The translations under genes and the position numbers were made by a program. Below the pieces are notes generated by a model that worked only from the letters and a program-made list of their open reading frames with translations, searched no databases and was not told the DNA's origin. From the NCBI GenBank assembly GCA_005888425.1, contig VAZF01000312.1, positions 1 through 29,977 of the forward strand: a stretch of 29,977 nt of DNA. Reading direction: 5' to 3'. Positions 1,232 to 29,977 of this stretch are shown here, piece by piece. Source of the stretch: Alphaproteobacteria bacterium (GTDB taxonomy: Bacteria; Pseudomonadota; Alphaproteobacteria; ATCC43930; CGMCC-115725). Within the stretch, counting starts at the first letter, position 1; every line of letters begins with the position of its first letter.

Positions 1232-1618
1232 TCAGCGGTCAGCATGACCATCACGACAGCCGAGCGCCTTGTAGATCTCGGCGACGAGTTCCTGCGCCAT
1301 GATCGGCTTTTCCAATAGAGCCACTCCGCTCCGATCCGCCGTCGAGACCAGGCTGGTTGTGATCTTGCCGCCGGTAACGAGGACGGCGGGAATCATAACA
1401 CCACCGCGACGAAGCCGCGCGAGCAGTTCGATCCCGTCGAGTTCGGGCATGTTCACGTCGACAAGCAGACAGCTCCTTTCAAGCGGTGGCGTCTCAGCCA
1501 AGAACATAGCGGCTGAGGTGTAGGAACGAACCTCGAAGCCGTTGGATTCAAGCATGACGTGGAAGGAATCCCCCACCGCCGCGTCGTCATCAATGACATA
1601 TACGATTGGTTTTGCCAC
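1232..1618 (-). CDS. Single-domain response regulator (FixJ-like receiver, no output domain)
   Basis: VYVIDDD, LLVDVNMPELDG, VLVTG and LLEKP, so the acidic pair, phospho-Asp, Thr and Lys are all intact. GTG 1618 follows an AAAGGGAA RBS; the ORF track starts at ATG 1636. Confidence 0.88.
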   Translation of the reverse strand: MAKPIVYVIDDDAAVGDSFHVMLESNGFEVRSYTSAAMFLAETPPLERSCLLVDVNMPELDGIELLARLRRGGVMIPAVLVTGGKITTSLVSTADRSGVALLEKPIMAQELVAEIYKALGCRDGHADR

Positions 1619-1793
1619 GCTTGAGTTCCCTTTCATTCGCGCGGTTCAATCGCCTTTGCCGATCCGAGACCACGAGCGACATACTCGATTTCTCGGGCTA
1701 ACGGCGCGAGCCCCGTATGTCGGTGTCCTTTTTGGAACAGTGCTCCACCTTTCCCGTGCAGGTGCCCCGGGGGTTCGGCCAACCCCGTCCCGG

Positions 1794-2501
1794 TCAGCGG
1801 CCCGCGGCTCCTGAGTGGCCGCCTTTTTTCTCGAAAATCGCAGCCTCAAACAGGGCGCGGTTGATGATCTGAACATATCGGCGATCCCGAATGGCAATCG
1901 CGCCGCGGTTCACAAGGGTTTGAAACGATCGGCCGACTGCCTCAAGCGAGATCCCCGCATAGGCGCCGATATCCGAACGTTTCATCGGCATATAAATTTC
2001 CTGCAAGGATCCCCTAGCCGTACCCTGGTGGGCTTCGAGCATCCTAAGGAAGAGACCTATTCTCGTGATTGCGCGTTGCCGACTGAGCAGAAATGCGTGT
2101 GCTTGAGCTTGATGCAGCTCGTGCGACAGCTGAGAAATCAGGTGAAACTGTAGGTCCGGATCGCTGCGGATTTGGGCATTTATCGCGACCATGGGCATCC
2201 GATACGCGGTCACCGCGGTAAGCGCCTCGGCGGAATTCAGGTGCGTGCCGTTCTGAACCGATCCGACCAGATCGTCGGCAAAGGAAAAGACGATGATATG
2301 CTGCGCTCCGTCCGGCAGCATCGTGTATGACTTTACGACGCCGCTAACGATGCTAAAGAGAGCCTCAGCGCCCTCACCTGTGCGGTACAACGGCTCTCCC
2401 TTGCGAAAGCGCACAAACGACGAAGGCAGCGCGAGTTCCGCACGGTCCCGAGACGTCGAGAGATGACTGGCATCGCCGGGCTCGGTGCTTACCGTCATCA
2501 T
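1794..2501 (-). CDS. Crp/Fnr-family transcriptional regulator (FixK-like, no N-terminal Fe-S cysteines)
   Basis: cNMP-type domain (FRKGEPLYRTGE...IVSGVVK...FADDLVG) and HTH MPMKRSDIGAYAGISLEAVGRSF. No Cys cluster. Confidence 0.88.
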   Translation of the reverse strand: MMTVSTEPGDASHLSTSRDRAELALPSSFVRFRKGEPLYRTGEGAEALFSIVSGVVKSYTMLPDGAQHIIVFSFADDLVGSVQNGTHLNSAEALTAVTAYRMPMVAINAQIRSDPDLQFHLISQLSHELHQAQAHAFLLSRQRAITRIGLFLRMLEAHQGTARGSLQEIYMPMKRSDIGAYAGISLEAVGRSFQTLVNRGAIAIRDRRYVQIINRALFEAAIFEKKGGHSGAAGR

Positions 2502-2742
2502 AGCCCGGCACCGGCGATAGCCAGGACGCCATTCAAACCGTTTATCCTCGGCATCTCAAAGACTGCCGCAATCCCGGTGCTCGCAACTCCGTCGTGCATG
2601 CAGCACAGCTGCGGTCCGCGAGCTCTGACGCGGCTCCGGCGAGCGGTATTGACGTGACGTGCACGACGGCGTTGGGTCGACACCGGCTTTGGTTCCCGAC
2701 GTTTTCCTCACGCACTTTTGCCTGACCCTGTATCGGACAGCA

Positions 2743-2756
2743 TTGATCTGTCGCAA
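2743..2756. promoter_or_regulatory. FixK2-type box
   Basis: TTGA-TCTGTC-GCAA, matching TTG(A/C)-N6-(T/G)CAA, in the divergent intergenic region. Confidence 0.45.
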
Positions 2757-2980
2757 TCGCGGAATAAAACAGTGTCAGAACAGAATTGAAAGACAGCTCC
2801 GAATCGAATGTACCACAGAAGCAAATCGTCAAAAATTGACCCTACCGTGGGTTCCGGGAATGCTTTTTTTTCTTTATCTGTTTGATAGAATTATTAAAAA
2901 TGTGCCGATCGGGAGTAGAAGTATTTGAGTAATACCCGAATGGCGCTAAATCCGTCAATTTATCGCAAATACCGGAAAGT

Positions 2981-2994
2981 TTGATTTTAATCAC
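2981..2994. promoter_or_regulatory. FNR/FixK-type box
   Basis: TTGAT-TTTA-ATCAC, 9/10 match, in the AT-rich intergenic segment. Confidence 0.55.
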
Positions 2995-3054
2995 CATCTA
3001 TTCAGCGAAGCCCTGCGTTCCACACTGGATGAGCTCGGTTTCCAGGCCGCTTTT

Positions 3055-3068
3055 TTGATTGTGATCAA
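3055..3068. promoter_or_regulatory. Perfect FNR/FixK box upstream of the DHp-only gene
   Basis: TTGAT-TGTG-ATCAA, 10/10. The ORF-track TTG start at 3055 falls inside this box. Confidence 0.85.
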
Positions 3069-3198
3069 CTTTCTGCCGGATTCGCCGCTCGCATCTCGCG
3101 CAAAAAGCGTGTTAACGTACGTTACGGGGGCGTTATCACGGAAAGAAGTCGCCAATAAAGGGGGCAGGCGGCAATGTCAGCACAAGGAGTACGTTGTC

Positions 3199-3486
3199 AT
3201 GGCGGCAGATGGGCACATCGGAGGGAACGACGGATTCCCGCGAGGCCAAACCGTTCCGACAGCTGCACTCGTGCACGAGCTGACGGAAGCGCTCACGGCG
3301 CTCGGTAACTATCTCGCCTCAGCGAATAAGATCTACGACAGCACGCCGCGGTCGCAGCGGCTGGGCGAGGCGCTTGAAAAAAGCCTAGGCCAACACGAGC
3401 GAGCTGTCGAAGCGACACGGCGCCTGCGTGACCTCGGCCGTCCTCGCAGAAGGGTGGACGGGGACTGCCTCATCGGCCTCCGCTAG
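3199..3486 (+). CDS. Stand-alone histidine-kinase dimerisation/phosphoacceptor (HisKA/DHp-like) protein, 95 aa
   Basis: AAGGAG RBS at 3184-3189, ATG 3199. LVHELTEALTALGNYLASA...LGEALEKSLGQHERAVEATRRLRDL aligns by eye with the DHp of the kinase in this window (LIHEVNQPLTAISNYLAAA...LKSVLQQSAEQAARATEIIRHLRDF). No ATPase or sensor domain. Confidence 0.72.
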   Translation: MAADGHIGGNDGFPRGQTVPTAALVHELTEALTALGNYLASANKIYDSTPRSQRLGEALEKSLGQHERAVEATRRLRDLGRPRRRVDGDCLIGLR

Positions 3487-4970
3487 GCGGCGCGGTCAGG
3501 CTTGACGGCGGCGGGCTCGCTCGCTTCGGGACGGCGCATTCTGAAGCCAAGAAAGGCGATCGCCACGGTCGCGAGCGGGTTCAGCAAGCTAAAGAACGCA
3601 AACCCCGCATAGCTCAGCGTCGGCACTCCAAGTGTGGCCGCCATATATGCGCCGCAGCTGTTCCAGGGGATCAACGGCGAGGTTACCGTTGCCGAATCGC
3701 CGACCGCGCGCGACAAAGCGACCGGAAGGAGACCGCGCCGGTCAAACTCGACGCGGAACATCCTCGCGGGCAGCACGATCGCGATGTACTGATCGGATGC
3801 GATCACATTCAAGCCGATACAAGTCCCGACCACCGCAACCACGAGGCTGCCCGTCGAGCGCACACCGCTGATTGCCGCCTCGGTCAACCGCTTCAACAGC
3901 CCGGCACGCTCGAGCACGGCGCCAAAGGCAAGCGCCGTCAAAATCAACCAGACCGTGTTGAGCATTGACTCCATGCCGCCGCGCGACAGGAGCCGGTCGA
4001 TCTCAACCTGGCCAGTGCTCGAAACATAGCCAGTGGCCAGCGCGGACCAGATCCCTTTTATGAGCGCGAGCGGCGCCGGAAGCGACGCGTCTTTGGCAAA
4101 GGCAATGACCTGGTTGGCATTGAAAAGGACAGCCAGAACACCGCCGAGCAATGCCCCAGCAAAAATCGTGACGAAAGGCGGGAAGCGCAGGATTGCCAGG
4201 CCAAAAACCAGGGCCAGAGGCAGCAATGTCCAGGGCGTGATGACGAAATGCTGAGTGAGGCCCGACAGCATTCCCGTAGCCTCGAATTCACTCGGCTGGC
4301 CGAGCAGCGCAAAACCGATCAGCGACAGCAAGAGCGCCGGGATGGAGGTCCACAGCGATTCCCGGGTATGCTGAAACAAATCGGAGCCTGATGCCGCGGC
4401 CGCCAAATTCACCGTATCGGACAGCGGCGATGCCTTGTCGCCGAAATATGCGCCCGAAATGACCGCACCCGCGGTGATTTCCGGCGACAACCCCATATTT
4501 CCGGCGATCCCGATCAGCCCGATCCCGATCGTGCCTGCGACGGTCCAAGAGCTGCCGATTCCGGTGGCGACAACCGCGCAGATCAGCGCCGCCGACGCAT
4601 AAAAGTAGTGTGGGCTGAGAACCTGCAGCCCGTAATACACCATCGTCGCGATCGTGCCGCTCAAAGCCCATGTGCCGATCAGTGCGCCGACGGCGAGCAA
4701 AATGAAAATCGCGGAGAGCGCAGAAGCTATACCGTCGGCGGTTGCCTGTCGCAAAGCGGACCACGGCACTCCATTCTTTACGGCGATGCCGCACGCGATC
4801 AAACCGCAGAACAGCAACGCGATCTGGTTCGGACCTTGCGCAGCCTTGTCGCCATAGAGCAGGTACGAGGTCGCCAGAAAGACGATCAGCGCGACGGCGG
4901 GAATGCAAGCGTCGAGCAGTGACGGAGTACGATCGGAACCTGCCGGCGGCGGTGGCGGAACATCGGTCAT
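3483..4970 (-). CDS. nhaC: NhaC-family antiporter (substrate uncertain; possibly an amino-acid exchanger)
   Basis: Multi-pass membrane protein with GSSWTVAGTIG, GAYFGDKASPLSDTVNLA and SPLIPWNSCGAYM motifs of the NhaC family. The start is ATG 4970 (MTDVPPP) after an AGAGAGG RBS, not the 5411 start of the track. Confidence 0.82.
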   Translation of the reverse strand: MTDVPPPPPAGSDRTPSLLDACIPAVALIVFLATSYLLYGDKAAQGPNQIALLFCGLIACGIAVKNGVPWSALRQATADGIASALSAIFILLAVGALIGTWALSGTIATMVYYGLQVLSPHYFYASAALICAVVATGIGSSWTVAGTIGIGLIGIAGNMGLSPEITAGAVISGAYFGDKASPLSDTVNLAAAASGSDLFQHTRESLWTSIPALLLSLIGFALLGQPSEFEATGMLSGLTQHFVITPWTLLPLALVFGLAILRFPPFVTIFAGALLGGVLAVLFNANQVIAFAKDASLPAPLALIKGIWSALATGYVSSTGQVEIDRLLSRGGMESMLNTVWLILTALAFGAVLERAGLLKRLTEAAISGVRSTGSLVVAVVGTCIGLNVIASDQYIAIVLPARMFRVEFDRRGLLPVALSRAVGDSATVTSPLIPWNSCGAYMAATLGVPTLSYAGFAFFSLLNPLATVAIAFLGFRMRRPEASEPAAVKPDRAA

Positions 4971-5097
4971 TGCCGGTGGTACCTCTCTATGGTGTGCGGC
5001 CCGCGCCTTACTTGCCGAGCCGGCCGCCTCGGTGAGGGCGCACTCGCCGATCGCGACACAGTGAACCGAGTCCTCGCGCCGATGCCGACGGGGTGTC

Positions 5098-6477
5098 CTA
5101 GAACGTGACGGTCGTGCGTACGGTGAATACGGCTTCGGGGCTGGCGTGCGGCGCCAATGCCGGGTTCCAGAACACCTGGATGTCCGGCGTGACATGCATC
5201 CCTTTGAAGATTGTCGCCTTGTAAAAGATCTCGCTGACCCACTCGCCGTCGCGCACGCCGACTGTTCCGACCGACTGGTGATTGGTCTTATTCCAGCCGG
5301 CCGCAACACCGAGCTGGTCGGCGCGGTTTCGGCCGATCGGATTATTCCAGATCGCGCCGCCTGCATAAGAGGTGCGGATCGGAATATCTGGTCCCGTCGC
5401 GTTGTTGACACGTAGGAACGCGCCGTATCTGTCGGTCAAATCCTGCGATATGCTCAGCGAGACGCCGGTTGATCGGCTGGAGACATTCGGGACAAACGGC
5501 TGCTCGTAAAGGAGCACGCTGTAAATGCCATCTCCCAAGCCCGGAACTTTTGGGGTCCATTGCGCATTGCCCCATTTGACCATTCTGCCTTGCTCGATAC
5601 CGGCGCTCGTCAGTGTGCCGCCATTGAGATCGGTGCCGCCCTGGGCGCCCACCGCGAAATTGAATTGTCCATCCGGAGTCTTTACGCGTCCGTACGCACC
5701 CAATCCGGCGTTCGGAAAGGTCTGAGTTGCAGTCTGGGCAAAGGAATAGCTGATGAAGCTCGTCTGCGCGTTGGCGGCGAACTCGTTAGGGTCGAAGGAG
5801 AAAAGGTTGTATTGGCCGACCGTCAAAGAGAGCCAGCTGACCAGCCCCGGAAATGTGTGCGTGTAAGCGAGCGTCGACCAGGCAAAATTGTCGCGCGTCC
5901 AGTCGTTCGGGAAAGTGATCAGCCCGAGGCGCGACGCTTGGCTGCTGGTGTTCTGGGTACTGAAATAGGCCTGGTGAGAGGTGACGATGTTGATTTCGCC
6001 GGAGCCGAATTGCGTGTCCTTGAACGGCTTCCAGGTTACGTAGGGATAGTAAACGTTCGCGTAGACCGGCGCGCCCTTCGTGCCCCACTGCGGGTAAAAG
6101 GAATAATCGATCCCGAAGTCGAGCTTGTATTGTTCGCTGATGCCCTTCTTGAAGGCGAGCCATTTGTCGTATTGGGTGTTGAGCACGTCGGCATAAGGCC
6201 GCGACCAATCCTCCGATCCGGGAACAAACTGAGGCAGCAGCCGAAACGCCGGACGCGTCTTGGTCGAGCCTACCGTTGCGCTGACATCGGGAACATTCGA
6301 CTCCGGCAAGGTGGGTAGCGGTGTCGCCTGAGGGCCCGTAGGCAACGGGTCAGCGGCGCTTCCCGGATTGTCGGCCAGCTGCGCGCGCGCCGGCGCCGTC
6401 GGAAAACCCAAAGCCAGGCCCATGGTCAACGCGGCTGCGACAGCTGGCGCATGGCATAGCATCCAGCGCAATCTCAC
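5098..6477 (-). CDS. OprB-family outer-membrane porin
   Basis: Signal peptide (APARA-Q), beta-strand pattern, EIFYKATIFKGMHVTPDIQ motif and C-terminal Phe (VRTTVTF). GGGGGGA RBS before GTG 6477. Confidence 0.78.
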   Translation of the reverse strand: MRLRWMLCHAPAVAAALTMGLALGFPTAPARAQLADNPGSAADPLPTGPQATPLPTLPESNVPDVSATVGSTKTRPAFRLLPQFVPGSEDWSRPYADVLNTQYDKWLAFKKGISEQYKLDFGIDYSFYPQWGTKGAPVYANVYYPYVTWKPFKDTQFGSGEINIVTSHQAYFSTQNTSSQASRLGLITFPNDWTRDNFAWSTLAYTHTFPGLVSWLSLTVGQYNLFSFDPNEFAANAQTSFISYSFAQTATQTFPNAGLGAYGRVKTPDGQFNFAVGAQGGTDLNGGTLTSAGIEQGRMVKWGNAQWTPKVPGLGDGIYSVLLYEQPFVPNVSSRSTGVSLSISQDLTDRYGAFLRVNNATGPDIPIRTSYAGGAIWNNPIGRNRADQLGVAAGWNKTNHQSVGTVGVRDGEWVSEIFYKATIFKGMHVTPDIQVFWNPALAPHASPEAVFTVRTTVTF

Positions 6478-9854: not shown

Positions 9855-9868
9855 TTGATTTAGATCAA
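9855..9868. promoter_or_regulatory. Perfect FNR/FixK/ANR box upstream of arcA
   Basis: CC-TTGAT-TTAG-ATCAA-GG, an extended palindrome at 9853-9870, about 96 bp upstream of the arcA ATG. Confidence 0.9.
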
Positions 9869-17298: not shown

Positions 17299-17312
17299 TT
17301 GACCCAAATCAA
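17299..17312. promoter_or_regulatory. FNR/FixK box upstream of the decarboxylase operon
   Basis: TTGAC-CCAA-ATCAA, 9/10 match, 78 bp upstream of ATG 17221. Confidence 0.75.
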
Positions 17313-23966: not shown

Positions 23967-23980
23967 TTGATGCAGATCAA
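23967..23980. promoter_or_regulatory. Perfect FNR/FixK box between the divergent OmpA-domain gene and ppk2
   Basis: TTGAT-GCAG-ATCAA, 10/10, 80 bp from ATG 24060 and 99 bp from ATG 23868. Confidence 0.85.
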
Positions 23981-24059: not shown

Positions 24060-24836
24060 ATGATGAAGCCCAAGAAGTACTCCGAAGAGCTGCGACGCCT
24101 GCAAACGGGACTCTGCAAGCTGCAGGAGTGGGTCAAGTACAAAGGGTTGCGCATTGTCGTCATATTCGAGGGCCGCGACGCGGCCGGCAAAGGCGGCACG
24201 ATCAAAGCCCTCACCGAGCGGGTGAGCCCCCGTGTGTTCCGCGTGGCCGCTTTACCGGCGCCGTCCGACCGCGAAAAAACACAAATGTATTTTCAGCGGT
24301 ATATGCCGCACTTCCCGGCCGCCGGCGAGATCGTCATCTTCGATCGCAGTTATTACAACCGTGCCGGCGTCGAGCATGTCATGGGTTTTTGCACGCCGGA
24401 GCAGCACCGCGGCTTTCTTGCGCTGGTCCCTTTCGTCGAACGGATCATGGTCGAGGGCGGCTTGATATTGATCAAGTACTGGCTTGAGGTCGGCAAAGAG
24501 GAGCAAGCGCGCCGTTTCGCGGCCCGCGTCGACGATCCGCTGCGGCAATGGAAGCTGAGTCCGATGGATGTCGAGGCATGGCGCCGATGGGACGAATATA
24601 CTCGTGCCCGCGACGAGATGCTGTTGTCGACCGATACGCCGCACGCACCCTGGTACATCGTCCGTTCAGACGACAAAAAAACGGCGCGCCTCAACTGCAT
24701 CTCGCATCTGCTGAGCCTCGTTCCGACAGAGGATGTGCCGCGCGAAAAGATAAAACTCCCCAAGCGGCCGGCCAAAGACAAATACGACCCCGAAGCAGGA
24801 CTCGCGGGTCGTAAGTTCGTGCCCGAGCTGCATTGA
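24060..24836 (+). CDS. ppk2: Polyphosphate kinase 2, single-domain
   Basis: FEGRDAAGKGG (Walker A), FDRSYYNR (Walker B) and QWKLSPMD. The start is placed at MMKPKKY because longer starts overlap the FNR box; no clear RBS. Confidence 0.92.
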   Translation: MMKPKKYSEELRRLQTGLCKLQEWVKYKGLRIVVIFEGRDAAGKGGTIKALTERVSPRVFRVAALPAPSDREKTQMYFQRYMPHFPAAGEIVIFDRSYYNRAGVEHVMGFCTPEQHRGFLALVPFVERIMVEGGLILIKYWLEVGKEEQARRFAARVDDPLRQWKLSPMDVEAWRRWDEYTRARDEMLLSTDTPHAPWYIVRSDDKKTARLNCISHLLSLVPTEDVPREKIKLPKRPAKDKYDPEAGLAGRKFVPELH

Positions 24837-27033: not shown

Positions 27034-28644
27034 TCAGCGAGCCGATGGAGGCAGCGCAAAGCGAAAGACAGTTCCGCCTTTGGGATTGTCCTCGGCGTAC
27101 AGCCGGCCGCCATGCGCCTCGACGATGACGCGGCAGATCGAAAGGCCGACCCCGAGGCCCCCGGCCTTTGTCGTGACAAACGGCTCGAACAGTTGCGCGC
27201 GGATCGCCGGCGACAGACCAGGCCCGGTATCGGCGACGCTGATCTCGACCATGTTGTCCGCGGTCAGTCTCGTAGTGATCGTCAGCACGCGCCGCTCGCT
27301 ATCGCCCATGGCCTCGATCGCATTGCGCACCAAGTTAAATACGACCTGCTCGATCTGCACACGGTCGAAAAACGCTGACGGGGCAACAGAGGAGAGCCGC
27401 ATCTCGATCGCGGGGATCGGCGGATCGATCCCGAGCAATGCGAGGCTCACCGCATTCCGGAGCATCTCTGGGATGTCGTCAGCTCGCTTTTCGGAATCGT
27501 GTCCGGCAATAAAGTCTCGCAAATGTCGGATGATCTCGGTCGCACGCGCGGCCTGCTCCGCCGATTGCTGCAGAACACTCTTCAGCCGTACCGTATTAGA
27601 GGCCGCGAGAAACTGCATCGCGGCAGCGAGATAGTTGGATATCGCGGTCAACGGCTGGTTCACCTCATGGATCAGCGAGGAGACGTTCTGACCCAGCTCG
27701 CTCACCCGCGACAGATGGATCAGAACCGCCTCCATTTCGTTGATCCGGCGCTCGCGCAGTCGCTGCGAGGCCGCGGCCGCGCTCGCTTGGCGTTCGTACA
27801 GCAAAATAATCTGCGAGATCAGGATCAGCAAAACGAAGATAGACGTCAGAAAATCGAAAAAGCTGCCAACGTACCAGCCGATGTCGTAACGACCCCTGCT
27901 AATGAACGCGCCGAGCGCGATCGTGCACAGCCAGGCGAGCATCGTCACGATCAGCCAGAGATCCAGCGTTGAGAGGGGACGCGCTGTCCGGGCGAGCAAA
28001 AGCAGCGCGGCGAGAGGCAAGGCGAGCAAGGCACCGACTGCAATGCGCGCCTCCCTCGTGTAGTAGCCGTTGTCGATCAGTGGCGGTAGCCATTGATGGC
28101 CTCGGGTTACCAGCAGAGTCGTTGCGGTCACCGCCACAATAATGGCGAGTACCATGCCAGCAATCGATCCGATCACGCCGTCGGTGGGGTCGCTTGCAGT
28201 ATCGGCGTGCTTTCGCTGTAGCGCGGCCGCAATAATCGTCAGCGGGAGCGCGGCATGCGCGGCGATATATAGATATGCTGCCGTTTGAGGCCCGGCCCCG
28301 AGCAGGCCCGTCTGTGAGAGCACCTCGGGGAAGGTTAACGTGTGAGGGACGGCAATCAGGGCGGTAAACAAATAACCGCCGGCCAAAATGTTGAATGCGT
28401 GCAAGCGGCCGATCGAGTACTGCCCGAACAGCAACGCCGAGGTGATCAAATCGCTGACCAACATCAACGTCTTCTGGGTCAGCACAAACGCGGGGAGGTG
28501 GAACCATCCGATCCTGGCAAACGGCAGTGTCGCTAGGAAAACTGCCAGCAACAAGCACGCAACGCCAAGCGCCAGGCGACGCTGACCCGGCGGCGCGGGC
28601 AACAGCGACAGCAATCCAGGTGATGCGCCTAGTCTGTCGGACAT
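27034..28644 (-). CDS. Sensor histidine kinase: MASE4 membrane input plus FixL-like HisKA/HATPase
   Basis: MASE4-type DLITSALLFGQY...GYLFTAL...HTLTFP...LLGAGPQT. H box IHEVNQPL, N box NLVRNAIEAM, G boxes DTGPG and GLGVGLSI. ATG 28644 follows AGGAGA; alternative start 28680. Confidence 0.88.
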   Translation of the reverse strand: MSDRLGASPGLLSLLPAPPGQRRLALGVACLLLAVFLATLPFARIGWFHLPAFVLTQKTLMLVSDLITSALLFGQYSIGRLHAFNILAGGYLFTALIAVPHTLTFPEVLSQTGLLGAGPQTAAYLYIAAHAALPLTIIAAALQRKHADTASDPTDGVIGSIAGMVLAIIVAVTATTLLVTRGHQWLPPLIDNGYYTREARIAVGALLALPLAALLLLARTARPLSTLDLWLIVTMLAWLCTIALGAFISRGRYDIGWYVGSFFDFLTSIFVLLILISQIILLYERQASAAAASQRLRERRINEMEAVLIHLSRVSELGQNVSSLIHEVNQPLTAISNYLAAAMQFLAASNTVRLKSVLQQSAEQAARATEIIRHLRDFIAGHDSEKRADDIPEMLRNAVSLALLGIDPPIPAIEMRLSSVAPSAFFDRVQIEQVVFNLVRNAIEAMGDSERRVLTITTRLTADNMVEISVADTGPGLSPAIRAQLFEPFVTTKAGGLGVGLSICRVIVEAHGGRLYAEDNPKGGTVFRFALPPSAR

Positions 28645-28987
28645 CTGATCCAAATGTCTCCTGGCCGGAGCAAGCAACAAAACCCGAAAATCTGAACATT
28701 TAATCCGACCACTGCCATCCGTGTTTTACCTGATAAGCGCCGCGCCATAGCCGTAGGATTGTCGTCGTTCGAGCTCTGCTGGTCTTCGCTGGCTCACCTG
28801 AGCAAGGCAGCGGAAGCCAATGAAAATCGGTGATCTGGTTTACCTCGGCCGTGACGATCTTTGTCGGGACGCTTGATCATCGCGGTGATCGAACGTCATC
28901 ACAGCGGCGGTCATCGCAATCCGGAAGGTCAGCATAGGACAGCGCATCGCCGGCGCGCCCGGGCTCCGGAGCGGAAGCAGCGTCGCT

Positions 28988-29647
28988 TCAGCGGCGATCT
29001 GCCTCGAAGCGGGGTTGCAACCCCGCGGCAAGCCCCAACCGCACAAGCTCGGATAGGCTGTGTGCTCCAGTTTTTTCCATAACCCGGGCGCGATGGATTT
29101 CGACTGTCCTCGGACTGATGCCGAGCTCATATCCGATTGATTTGTTGGACAGCCCCAAGAGCAGCGCTTCCAGGACCTCTCGCTCGCGCGGCGACAACGA
29201 TTTGAGGCGAGATGCCGCCGTTGCCGACAGCGCGTCTGGCTGCGGCCGGGTGCTGAGGTTGCCGAGCGCGTTTTTGGTTCGGTTCAGAATAGTATCAGGA
29301 GCGAACGGCTTTTCGATGAAATCGAGAGCACCGGCTTTCATAGCTCCGACCGCGAGCGGAACATCCCCATGGCCGGTGATGACAATAAAGGGAAACGGAA
29401 GGCCAAGCTCGATGAGCCGCCGCTGCATTTCGAGCCCGTCCATTCCGGGCATGCGAATATCGGCAATAAGGCAACCCGGGTCGAGGGCGGGCGCTGCCAC
29501 GAGGAATTCCTGGGCTGAAGAGAACCGGCGGCTGCCGTATCCATTGGCCTCGAACAACGCCGATAATGAAGCGCGCACGGCCTGGTCGTCATCGACGATA
29601 TAGATGTAGCCGACAGGCATTCCCGCGAGCCTCGGCGAACGTGACAC
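28988..29647 (-). CDS. fixJ: FixJ-family response regulator (receiver plus LuxR-type HTH)
   Basis: IVDDD, DIRMPGMDG, DFIEKPF and LSPREREVL...NKSIGYELGISPRTVEIHRARVMEK. Alternative start ATG 29620. Confidence 0.85.
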   Translation of the reverse strand: MSRSPRLAGMPVGYIYIVDDDQAVRASLSALFEANGYGSRRFSSAQEFLVAAPALDPGCLIADIRMPGMDGLEMQRRLIELGLPFPFIVITGHGDVPLAVGAMKAGALDFIEKPFAPDTILNRTKNALGNLSTRPQPDALSATAASRLKSLSPREREVLEALLLGLSNKSIGYELGISPRTVEIHRARVMEKTGAHSLSELVRLGLAAGLQPRFEADRR

Positions 29648-29794: not shown

Positions 29795-29977
29795 TCATGT
29801 CTCGCAGAGCGCCTCAAGAGCGTCTCGGTGATGAAATTCGATACGATGCGCTGTCGGAATCGCGATGATTCTGTCACGCCGGAAGCCCGACAAAACGCGG
29901 CACACGGTCTCGATTGTCAGTCCGAGGTAATCGGCGACGTCGCTGCGCGACATCGCCAGATCGAGCACACGCGGCGC
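29795..29977 (-). CDS. C-terminal 60 aa of a second Crp/Fnr (FixK-like) regulator, cut by the window edge; absent from the ORF track
   Basis: Manual translation gives APRVLDLAMSRSDVADYLGLTIETVCRVLSGFRRDRIIAIPTAHRIEFHHRDALEALCET-stop, a FixK/Fnr-type HTH. Confidence 0.9.
   Translation of the reverse strand, partial: APRVLDLAMSRSDVADYLGLTIETVCRVLSGFRRDRIIAIPTAHRIEFHHRDALEALCET

Follow-up and report, generated by a model that had tools for sequence, protein, structure and literature searches.

Accessory proteins such as FixT, Sda, KipI, and Spo0E are known to tune two-component systems. Spo0E, CheZ, and Sda are short helical proteins that regulate two-component signaling by docking either to the receiver active site or to the two-helix phospho-acceptor (DHp) hairpin of a kinase, and Spo0B and ChpT form a DHp-like four-helix bundle, which has no kinase activity, docks receivers, and comes with an essential phospho-His and a degenerate CA-like domain. 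In this study, we have examined a 95-residue protein (called P0001), the gene of which is located at 3199–3486 of the forward strand in a 29,977-nt stretch of DNA (contig VAZF01000312.1, GCA_005888425.1, Alphaproteobacteria bacterium; hereafter, this whole stretch is called the window). Judging from its sequence, P0001 consists of nothing but the two-helix phospho-acceptor hairpin of a FixL-type kinase, and its most likely role is to tune the low-oxygen FixL-FixJ-FixK switch through contact with a partner, not by carrying phosphate.

In Sinorhizobium meliloti and Caulobacter crescentus, the feedback inhibitor of FixLJ is FixT, a small protein that is induced by FixLJ-FixK, is encoded beside fixK, and acts on FixL by protein-protein contact but not by phosphotransfer (PMC7078487). 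Also, the autorepression of fixK2 in Bradyrhizobium is reported to be indirect and still without a mechanistic explanation (PMC9104804); FixK-dependent feedback factors therefore remain to be found. P0001 is a concrete candidate for such feedback in an abundant lineage of uncultured soil Alphaproteobacteria. The literature searched, which included few subscription-journal papers, did not describe any regulator made of a DHp alone or any DHp-like protein under induction by FixK, and this agrees with the initial annotation of the locus, in which no FixK-induced DHp-only regulator was known. Neither the papers nor the libraries searched, furthermore, contained a regulator that is the docking hairpin of the kinase itself, set free and catalytically silent.

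Gene structure and family of P0001

The gene was read directly from ATG at 3199 to TAG at 3484–3486 and translated into 95 residues, and a Shine-Dalgarno sequence (AAGGAG, 3184–3189, forward strand) is positioned 9 nt 5′ of the ATG; the initial annotation had indeed described a 95-residue open reading frame (ORF) with a strong ribosome-binding site. The purine-rich GGAG block upstream of the small gene is retained in its relatives. A longer form starting at TTG 3055 (143 residues) was rejected because the homologues start at the MAAD motif behind the conserved ribosome-binding site and also because that TTG falls within a FixK box (described below). At the 3′ end, the stop codon overlaps with that of the convergent nhaC gene (reverse strand) in the sequence CTAG (3483–3486), as had been pointed out, and the identical 4-nt overlap was also read at three related loci (L021, L023, and L027).

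The core of P0001 had been likened to the DHp of a “FixL-like” kinase at the other end of the window (27034–28680, reverse strand), including the phospho-acceptor His and the Glu at H+1, and this likeness was reproduced by BLASTP (41% identity over 64 residues, E = 2e-11). In the alignment, ..HELTEALTALGNYLA.. of P0001 is paired with ..HEVNQPLTAISNYLA.. of the kinase, H26 and E27 stand opposite the HE of the kinase, and helix 2 of each protein is aligned, too. At H+4 and H+5, as translation and alignment confirmed, P0001 has Glu and Ala where the kinase has Gln-Pro. This kinase was the best match to the FixL model in the genome (253 bits, positions 243–482); it also ranked second among the matches of P0001 there, and its DHp is the closest in that genome to P0001. 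The term “FixL-like” is hence appropriate to its transmitter but not to its sensor; the Pfam architecture is MASE4-HisKA-HATPase, and the kinase is therefore devoid of a heme-PAS sensor. Apart from this correction, every sequence feature that the initial annotation had described was confirmed.

In a Pfam scan of P0001, neither a sensor nor a CA/ATPase domain was found, and the only match was HisKA (PF00512) at residues 22–82, which stayed below the gathering score (17.8 bits against a cut-off of 26.9, E = 0.0034). When the whole genome was scanned with the FixL model, furthermore, only the DHp positions 267–326 were matched at the small-gene locus. No HATPase_c follows the hairpin there; P0001 ends 15 residues past helix 2, and the convergent nhaC comes next. 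The initial view of P0001 as a protein with no ATPase or sensor domain thus stands. Against the FixL family of NCBIfam (NF041777), P0001 scored 24.5 bits at positions 267–326, which does not reach the threshold of 850 bits for a full-length match to the PAS-heme sensor and transmitter, and the best NCBIfam match of six out of six diverse members of the family was the DHp segment of the FixL model (positions about 265–330). With the family profile, the sole significant matches in the PDB were DHp chimeras of Bradyrhizobium japonicum FixL (4gcz and 8a7f, E = 1.7e-11).

AF2, supplied with an alignment of 73 sequences, predicted P0001 to be an antiparallel two-helix hairpin as expected of HisKA, in which helix 1 spans residues 21–47 (nt 3259–3339) and helix 2 spans residues 52–80 (nt 3352–3438) with pLDDT of 88–97 in the core. 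When the model was compared with the PDB by Foldseek, generic helical hairpins (designed bundles, EncB, and AcrA/MexA) were hit, and the DHps of the histidine kinases SrrB and HK853 appeared at E of about 0.5–0.9, which is uninformative for so simple a fold. Outside the hairpin, two motifs are conserved in regions of low model confidence, namely MAAD.DIG at the N-terminus (residues 1–8, 3199–3222) and D.LIG.R at the C-terminus (residues 89–95, 3463–3483); these could be degrons, given that FixT is a substrate of Lon, or additional contact peptides.

An exhaustive search over 1.84 billion representatives retrieved 107 clusters at 50% identity (E ≤ 1e-3), nearly all of which were 75–135 residues in length with few long proteins, and a word-indexed search found 62 homologues, most of them being 95–97 residues and 60–99% identical to P0001. 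The homologues are, therefore, overwhelmingly small proteins and not full-length kinases. The dN/dS was 0.20–0.52 in the family, and it was 0.24–0.52 when the window copy was paired with each of four independent orthologues; it is thus not close to 1. In an order-wide profile search of 244 genomes, moreover, the scores were bimodal: small full-length matches in about 12–20 of the genomes (open frames of 103–226 residues) scored 76–122 bits, and the DHps of kinases with 390–930 residues scored about 50–65 bits. Given the small homologues, the low dN/dS, the bimodal scores, and the lack of any match to an ATPase-domain remnant nearby in the FixL-model scan, the small ORF is a real gene of a distinct and unnamed family under selection; a kinase pseudogene or remnant was rejected on the same grounds, dN/dS lying in the range of purifying selection. 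Both the anatomy and the conservation of the gene are hence well supported.

Members of this small-protein family came from soil metagenomes and from one order of uncultured Alphaproteobacteria. A pattern scan of genome contigs gave three loci, all in metagenome-assembled genomes (MAGs) of uncultured soil Alphaproteobacteria, and one of these MAG relatives and a genome of the same genus are a single record. When 400 other genomes of the class were drawn (about 308 genera), there was no match at E ≤ 1e-18, where only 12 candidates per genome were scored and absence is thus not shown. In the searched genomes, accordingly, no member of the family turned up beyond the order of the window. Neighbors in a protein atlas were unnamed small-protein clusters, in which a label of “Acidobacteriota” on very few members was not relied on.

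Linkage to fixK and the upstream FixK box

The gene divergent from that of P0001 encodes a fixK-like Crp/FNR regulator (1794–2501, reverse strand; 235 residues; Pfam cNMP_binding and HTH_Crp_2) with no Cys cluster. Downstream of this gene, i.e., at the position of fixT, a single-domain receiver is encoded (1232–1636, reverse strand; Pfam Response_reg), the active site of which is canonical (D60, T88, and K110). This receiver is FixJ-type, its best relatives in the PDB being the FixJ receivers 5xso and 1d5w, and is 33% identical to the receiver of the FixJ-like response regulator in the window (28988–29647, reverse strand; Pfam Response_reg and GerE, i.e., a receiver followed by a LuxR/GerE helix-turn-helix (HTH)). 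The FixJ-like protein, whose gene adjoins that of the MASE4 kinase, is also a candidate docking partner of P0001.

A fixK-like Crp/FNR gene was divergent from the small gene at all of the 18 family loci examined. Seven metagenome loci had the same arrangement, in which the Crp/FNR gene is followed by the single-domain receiver and then by an AI-2E transporter on the side opposite the small gene, and the downstream neighbor of the small gene varied between NhaC and an RND pump. At four more distant loci (40–58% identity), the Crp/FNR gene was again divergent and followed by the receiver, except for L040, where a PAS-HisKA-HATPase kinase was found instead. The fixK homologue (42–56% identical) was always adjacent at nine genome loci as well, with the receiver after it at six of them; at two of the nine (L029 and L030, examined over 10 kb), the pair of fixK and the small gene stood alone. 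Synteny, which the initial annotation had singled out as a test of its proposal, is therefore conserved with fixK at every one of these 18 loci and with the receiver-only gene at most of them, and the linkage of the small gene to fixK is well supported.

The perfect FixK/FNR box that had been noticed upstream of the ORF, TTGATTGTGATCAA, was located at 3055–3068 with its center 137.5 bp 5′ of the P0001 ATG; a second, imperfect box, TTGATTTTAATCAC, is present at 2981–2994 with one mismatch, and its position is not conserved in the relatives. The window contains four perfect boxes as compared with 0.03 expected, and none of 100 shuffles reached four. Among the fixK-linked loci scanned, 15 out of 16 were equipped with a TTGAT-N4-ATCAA box upstream of the small gene (11 perfect and four with one mismatch), as is characteristic of the class II FixK/FNR-activated regulon; the half-sites are kept across the loci, and the four spacer bases vary. 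The distance from the box to the small-gene start is constant (about 100–150 bp), but that to fixK is variable (about 40–560 bp), and the box is hence assigned to the promoter of the small gene. From this box, we infer that the small gene would be induced by FixK at low oxygen. A scan for sigma-70 promoters found nothing.

The window stretch was contained in 20 public soil runs, six of which are RNA libraries. In four RNA runs from four soil studies, where contigs were compared over 2300–3900, three contigs (3176–3438, 3188–3430, and 3176–3399) were 100% identical to the window, and a fourth (3154–3359) had three differences. Within the same range, no RNA contig corresponded to the fixK or nhaC parts except for one 31-nt piece inside nhaC. 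The initial annotation would have been undermined by the absence of any transcript or protein under low oxygen, but contigs from soil RNA libraries, the growth condition of which is not given, do cover the ORF. Expression is in this sense well supported: the contigs are good evidence for the presence of the small ORF in RNA libraries, short of proving a defined transcript or low-oxygen induction. Position 3176, at which two of the contigs begin, was rejected as evidence for a transcription start site because assembled contigs cannot show RNA ends. One metatranscriptome run gave contigs at 2683–3183 in the unusually long spacer (697 bp) between fixK and the small gene, and these contigs over the spacer could stem from a small RNA, from read-through, or from DNA within the library; in Rfam, nothing was hit at E ≤ 1 within 2400–3600. 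A terminator-like hairpin with a T-run (3036–3049) is also found in the spacer and ends directly at the FixK box.

Several other features of the locus were noticed. A motif, TTGATCTnnCGCAA, is present at 2743–2756 in the window and occurs 190–250 bp 5′ of the fixK-like start in all close relatives (at 5535 in L021, 4110 in L023, 5561 in L024, and 5710 in L027), and it may be a control site of fixK itself, either for FixJ or for autoregulation. In the presumed 5′ leader of the small gene, a 12-bp perfect palindrome, TAACGTACGTTA, was found at 3113–3124, of which the GTTAA part is conserved and the full palindrome is not. Further perfect FixK/FNR boxes are located at 9855–9868, 23967–23980, and 24462–24475, together with a one-mismatch box at 17299–17312; these further boxes precede arginine-deiminase genes, an OmpA/patatin/RND unit, and a PPK2 gene, and members of a FixK-type regulon are thus densely packed in the 30-kb window. 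Next to fixJ and the MASE4 kinase, a second regulator of the Crp/FNR type is cut by the end of the window, and its C-terminal HTH is encoded at 29795–29977 (reverse strand). FixK-like paralogues thus number at least two in the genome, and the one to which the small gene is tied (1794–2501) has no Cys residues. The convergent NhaC-family ORF (3483–5411, reverse strand) is listed with 642 residues, whereas its homologues in the syntenic loci have 494 residues; translation thus probably starts near 4967, which would leave the first 148 codons untranslated.

The module of fixK, receiver, and small gene is adjoined by a phage-type integrase in one locus (966–2195 of L026) and by RepB-primase and excisionase-like genes in others (4868–8450 of L037/L038). 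Also, two to three paralogues of the small gene are present in some genomes (G177, G178, and G079), and the distribution within the order is patchy. These observations suggest spread via mobile islands. A subgroup of two (L003, G010:C1; L070, G071:C861) has the ELSERLTA motif in the H-box region, neither linkage to fixK nor a FixK box, and may be a separate offshoot with another partner.

Residue conservation and the role of P0001

Among 147 small homologues, the phospho-acceptor position (H26; codon 3274–3276, forward strand) was His in only 78, with Ser in 26 and Arg in 19. In contrast, E30 at H+4 (codon 3286–3288, forward strand), the hallmark of the family, was conserved in 133 and A31 at H+5 in 135, and the counts were also high at E27 (121), L32, T33, and A34 (about 137 each), G36 (137), N37 (123), Y38 (132), Q65 (141), R68 (144), R74 (127), and L76 (132); T33, A34, G36, N37, Y38, K61, Q65, R68, and R74 are conserved at 84–98% in the family. 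The His is absent even from close relatives. An orthologue with about 69% identity and the same synteny (L027) has Ser at this position, and copies of the small gene in genomes have Arg, Tyr, or Gln. Related kinases of the same order, on the other hand, had HE[LV]NQP in 19 out of 19 cases. When ten small copies were compared with these kinases, nine had Glu at H+4, the exception being L070, which is not linked to fixK. The family is therefore defined by a relaxed His and a Gln-to-Glu replacement at H+4, and it departs from HisKA kinases, which are characterized by a conserved phospho-acceptor His, Thr/Asn (Gln in the FixL type) at H+4, and Pro at H+5.

We then considered where the conserved residues are located in a model of the complex between two copies of P0001 and the adjacent receiver (1232–1636). 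The complex scored 0.76, and the best of three controls scored 0.00; among solved complexes, 58 of 80 attained the mark for this score, as did 2 of 110 mismatched pairs, a calibration that is rough here because of custom alignments. Across the runs, contacts agreed by at least 89%, and pLDDT of the partner was at least 83. Since solved complexes of histidine kinases with response regulators (HK-RR) exist, the score may reflect a likeness to them and is short of proving binding. The modeled geometry is canonical, with helix 1 of the DHp placed against helix 1 and the β5-α5 loop of the receiver; E30 is beside D18, a residue of the receiver acidic pocket, and H26 is at the interface. The strongly conserved polar residues (E30, T33, N37, Y38, K61, Q65, R68, R74, and R77) are all on this modeled receiver-docking surface with the exception of E27, and the other conserved positions constitute the hydrophobic core (L28, A42, L55, L59, A69, A72, and L76). 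Indeed, residues at the modeled interface were conserved at 2.93 bits as compared with 2.15 bits for the other helix residues (permutation p of about 0.001).

In the initial annotation, P0001 was proposed as a phosphate sink or a shuttle between FixJ and the receiver-only protein; H26 would then carry the phosphate as in Spo0B, ChpT, or Hpt, and the window copy does retain His-Glu, the receiver-only gene is adjacent, and H26 is placed at the interface in the docking geometry. Histidine phosphotransferases have, however, an invariant phosphorylatable His, whereas the His is replaced by Ser, Arg, Tyr, Gln, or others in about half of this family, including close orthologues with identical synteny, and purifying selection falls on other residues. 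This proposal was thus not borne out; phosphotransfer is excluded as the conserved function of the family, and we regard it as highly improbable for P0001. A stand-alone phosphatase that acts on the aspartyl phosphate of FixJ or the receiver, as isolated DHps of bifunctional kinases can, would tolerate the loss of His, and E27 and E30, which would be the catalytic pair, occupy H+1 and H+4 as in the phosphatase motif of HisKA. Both vary less in the family than the His does, and E30 is modeled next to D18 of the receiver. In HisKA kinases, the His is indeed largely dispensable for the phosphatase activity, most of which is kept in CrdS with H371A, and Glu at H+1 is needed for the kinase activity, but the phosphatase activity requires Thr/Asn at H+4 and is abolished to an unmeasurable level in CrdS with N375D, i.e., an acidic H+4, as well as with N375Q (PMC3510030). 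Characterized receiver phosphatases (HisKA with E/DxxT/N, CheX with ExxN, CheZ with DxxxQ, and Spo0E) all have a hydroxyl or amide side chain (Thr, Asn, or Gln) at this position, by which the attacking water is positioned, whereas Gln of the kinases is replaced by Glu in 133 of the 147 members. Given the optional His, the Glu at H+4, and the CrdS mutants, therefore, a phosphatase activity of the P0001 family seems quite unlikely as well as phosphotransfer, and what would remain is a role in binding only.

The reading that we favor, albeit tentatively, is that P0001 is induced by FixK, mimics a DHp without catalysis, and titrates a receiver of the FixJ type. The small gene would be transcribed from a FixK-activated promoter, and P0001 should hence appear while the cascade of the FixL-type kinase, FixJ, and FixK is on. 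P0001 would then probably form a DHp-like four-helix bundle with the receiver-docking face of FixL-type kinases retained and bind a FixJ-type receiver, which would be that of FixJ or the FixT-like single-domain protein encoded next to fixK. Because P0001 lacks an ATPase domain, can dispense with the His, and carries an acidic residue at H+4, it would not phosphorylate and probably not dephosphorylate the receiver; instead, the receiver would be titrated away from the kinase to give FixK-dependent feedback on the cascade, which we infer to be negative when FixJ is bound and positive when the FixT-like inhibitor is bound. It is possible, and we hold this with somewhat less confidence, that P0001 represents an undescribed class of regulator, an “anti-receiver” pseudo-DHp: a freed, FixK-induced hairpin with no need of the His would insert Glu at H+4 into the acidic pocket of the receiver and thereby sequester unphosphorylated FixJ-type receivers or antagonize the FixT-like inhibitor.

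Titration of a receiver has to face several difficulties, nonetheless. The adjacent receiver is missing at L029, L030, and L040 and hence cannot be the universal partner. The complex model took this receiver alone and would not tell it from FixJ or other receivers, and its score may reflect HK-RR structures that the predictor had learned. Since FixL-type kinases retain the polar residues that are conserved in the family, furthermore, these could serve the packing of the bundle or contact with the CA domain of a kinase. In compact loci, the box, being palindromic, could act on the divergent fixK as well. The RNA data are assembled contigs, which give no strand, ends, or level, and one of the RNA runs spans the intergenic DNA upstream of the box, too.

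Two other modes of binding were also weighed. The hairpin might be a poison subunit that heterodimerizes with the DHp of the MASE4 kinase, so that a mixed bundle with one CA domain and one defective H-box is less autophosphorylated, and FixT likewise gives negative feedback by inhibiting the autophosphorylation of FixL (PMC7078487). P0001 is the closest relative of the kinase DHp in its own genome, and the core residues L28, A42, L55, L59, A69, A72, and L76 are conserved and common to FixL-type kinases, but this conservation is needed just as much for a homodimer. Dimerization alone leaves the invariant polar surface and the Glu at H+4 unexplained, and the small gene is present in only about 12–20 of the 244 genomes of the order, where FixL-type kinases are common. 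We consider the poison subunit doubtful; the kinase decoy of the initial annotation thus survives as a reading, but receiver docking is indicated no less strongly by the conserved polar surface and the complex model. Alternatively, the partner might be outside two-component proteins, for example the FixK-like regulator, for which P0001 would be an anti-activator or stabilizer with its DHp ancestry being only historical. The fixK-like regulator is the sole universally linked gene, with the receiver and the kinase not always adjacent, and the MAAD.DIG and D.LIG.R motifs beyond the DHp core are not accounted for otherwise. Adjacency of a regulator and its target, however, explains the linkage without protein contact, and the most conserved block is the receiver-docking helix common to FixL-type kinases; a partner of this kind is therefore unlikely.

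If the titration of a receiver by P0001 is true, it would be a cheap evolutionary route to pathway-specific feedback, in which the interface is copied and the chemistry is deleted, and P0001 would be a natural minimal reagent for blocking FixL-FixJ-type signaling. The “anti-receiver” proposal, if true, would provide indirect feedback dependent on FixK, of the sort that still awaits an explanation for fixK2 in Bradyrhizobium. The host organisms are uncultured. That the His is dispensable and the Glu at H+4 invariant is a contrast open to direct testing in a protein of 95 residues.

Comparison with known regulators

P0001 shares a two-helix hairpin and the signature LTA(I/L)xNYL...Q..RA....R.LR with the DHp of FixL-type kinases, namely B. 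japonicum FixL (4gcz) and the MASE4 kinase in the window. The P0001 family differs from them in having neither a sensor nor a CA/ATPase domain, in its optional His, and in the replacement of NQP with xE(A/P); also, P0001 is a free-standing protein of about 95 residues with its own promoter. A DHp-like bundle would be common to P0001 and Spo0B/ChpT, but the His is dispensable in the P0001 family, and nothing follows the hairpin. Spo0E, CheZ, and Sda have no sequence relationship with P0001, and the catalytic amide (Gln/Asn) of the phosphatases is Glu in the P0001 family. The role proposed for P0001 would be analogous to that of FixT, i.e., an accessory feedback protein of the FixLJ-FixK cascade. 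FixT is, however, a single-domain receiver, a fold found in the neighboring protein at 1232–1636 and not in the helical hairpin of P0001, and P0001, as a mimic of the DHp, corresponds to the opposite half of the kinase-receiver interface.

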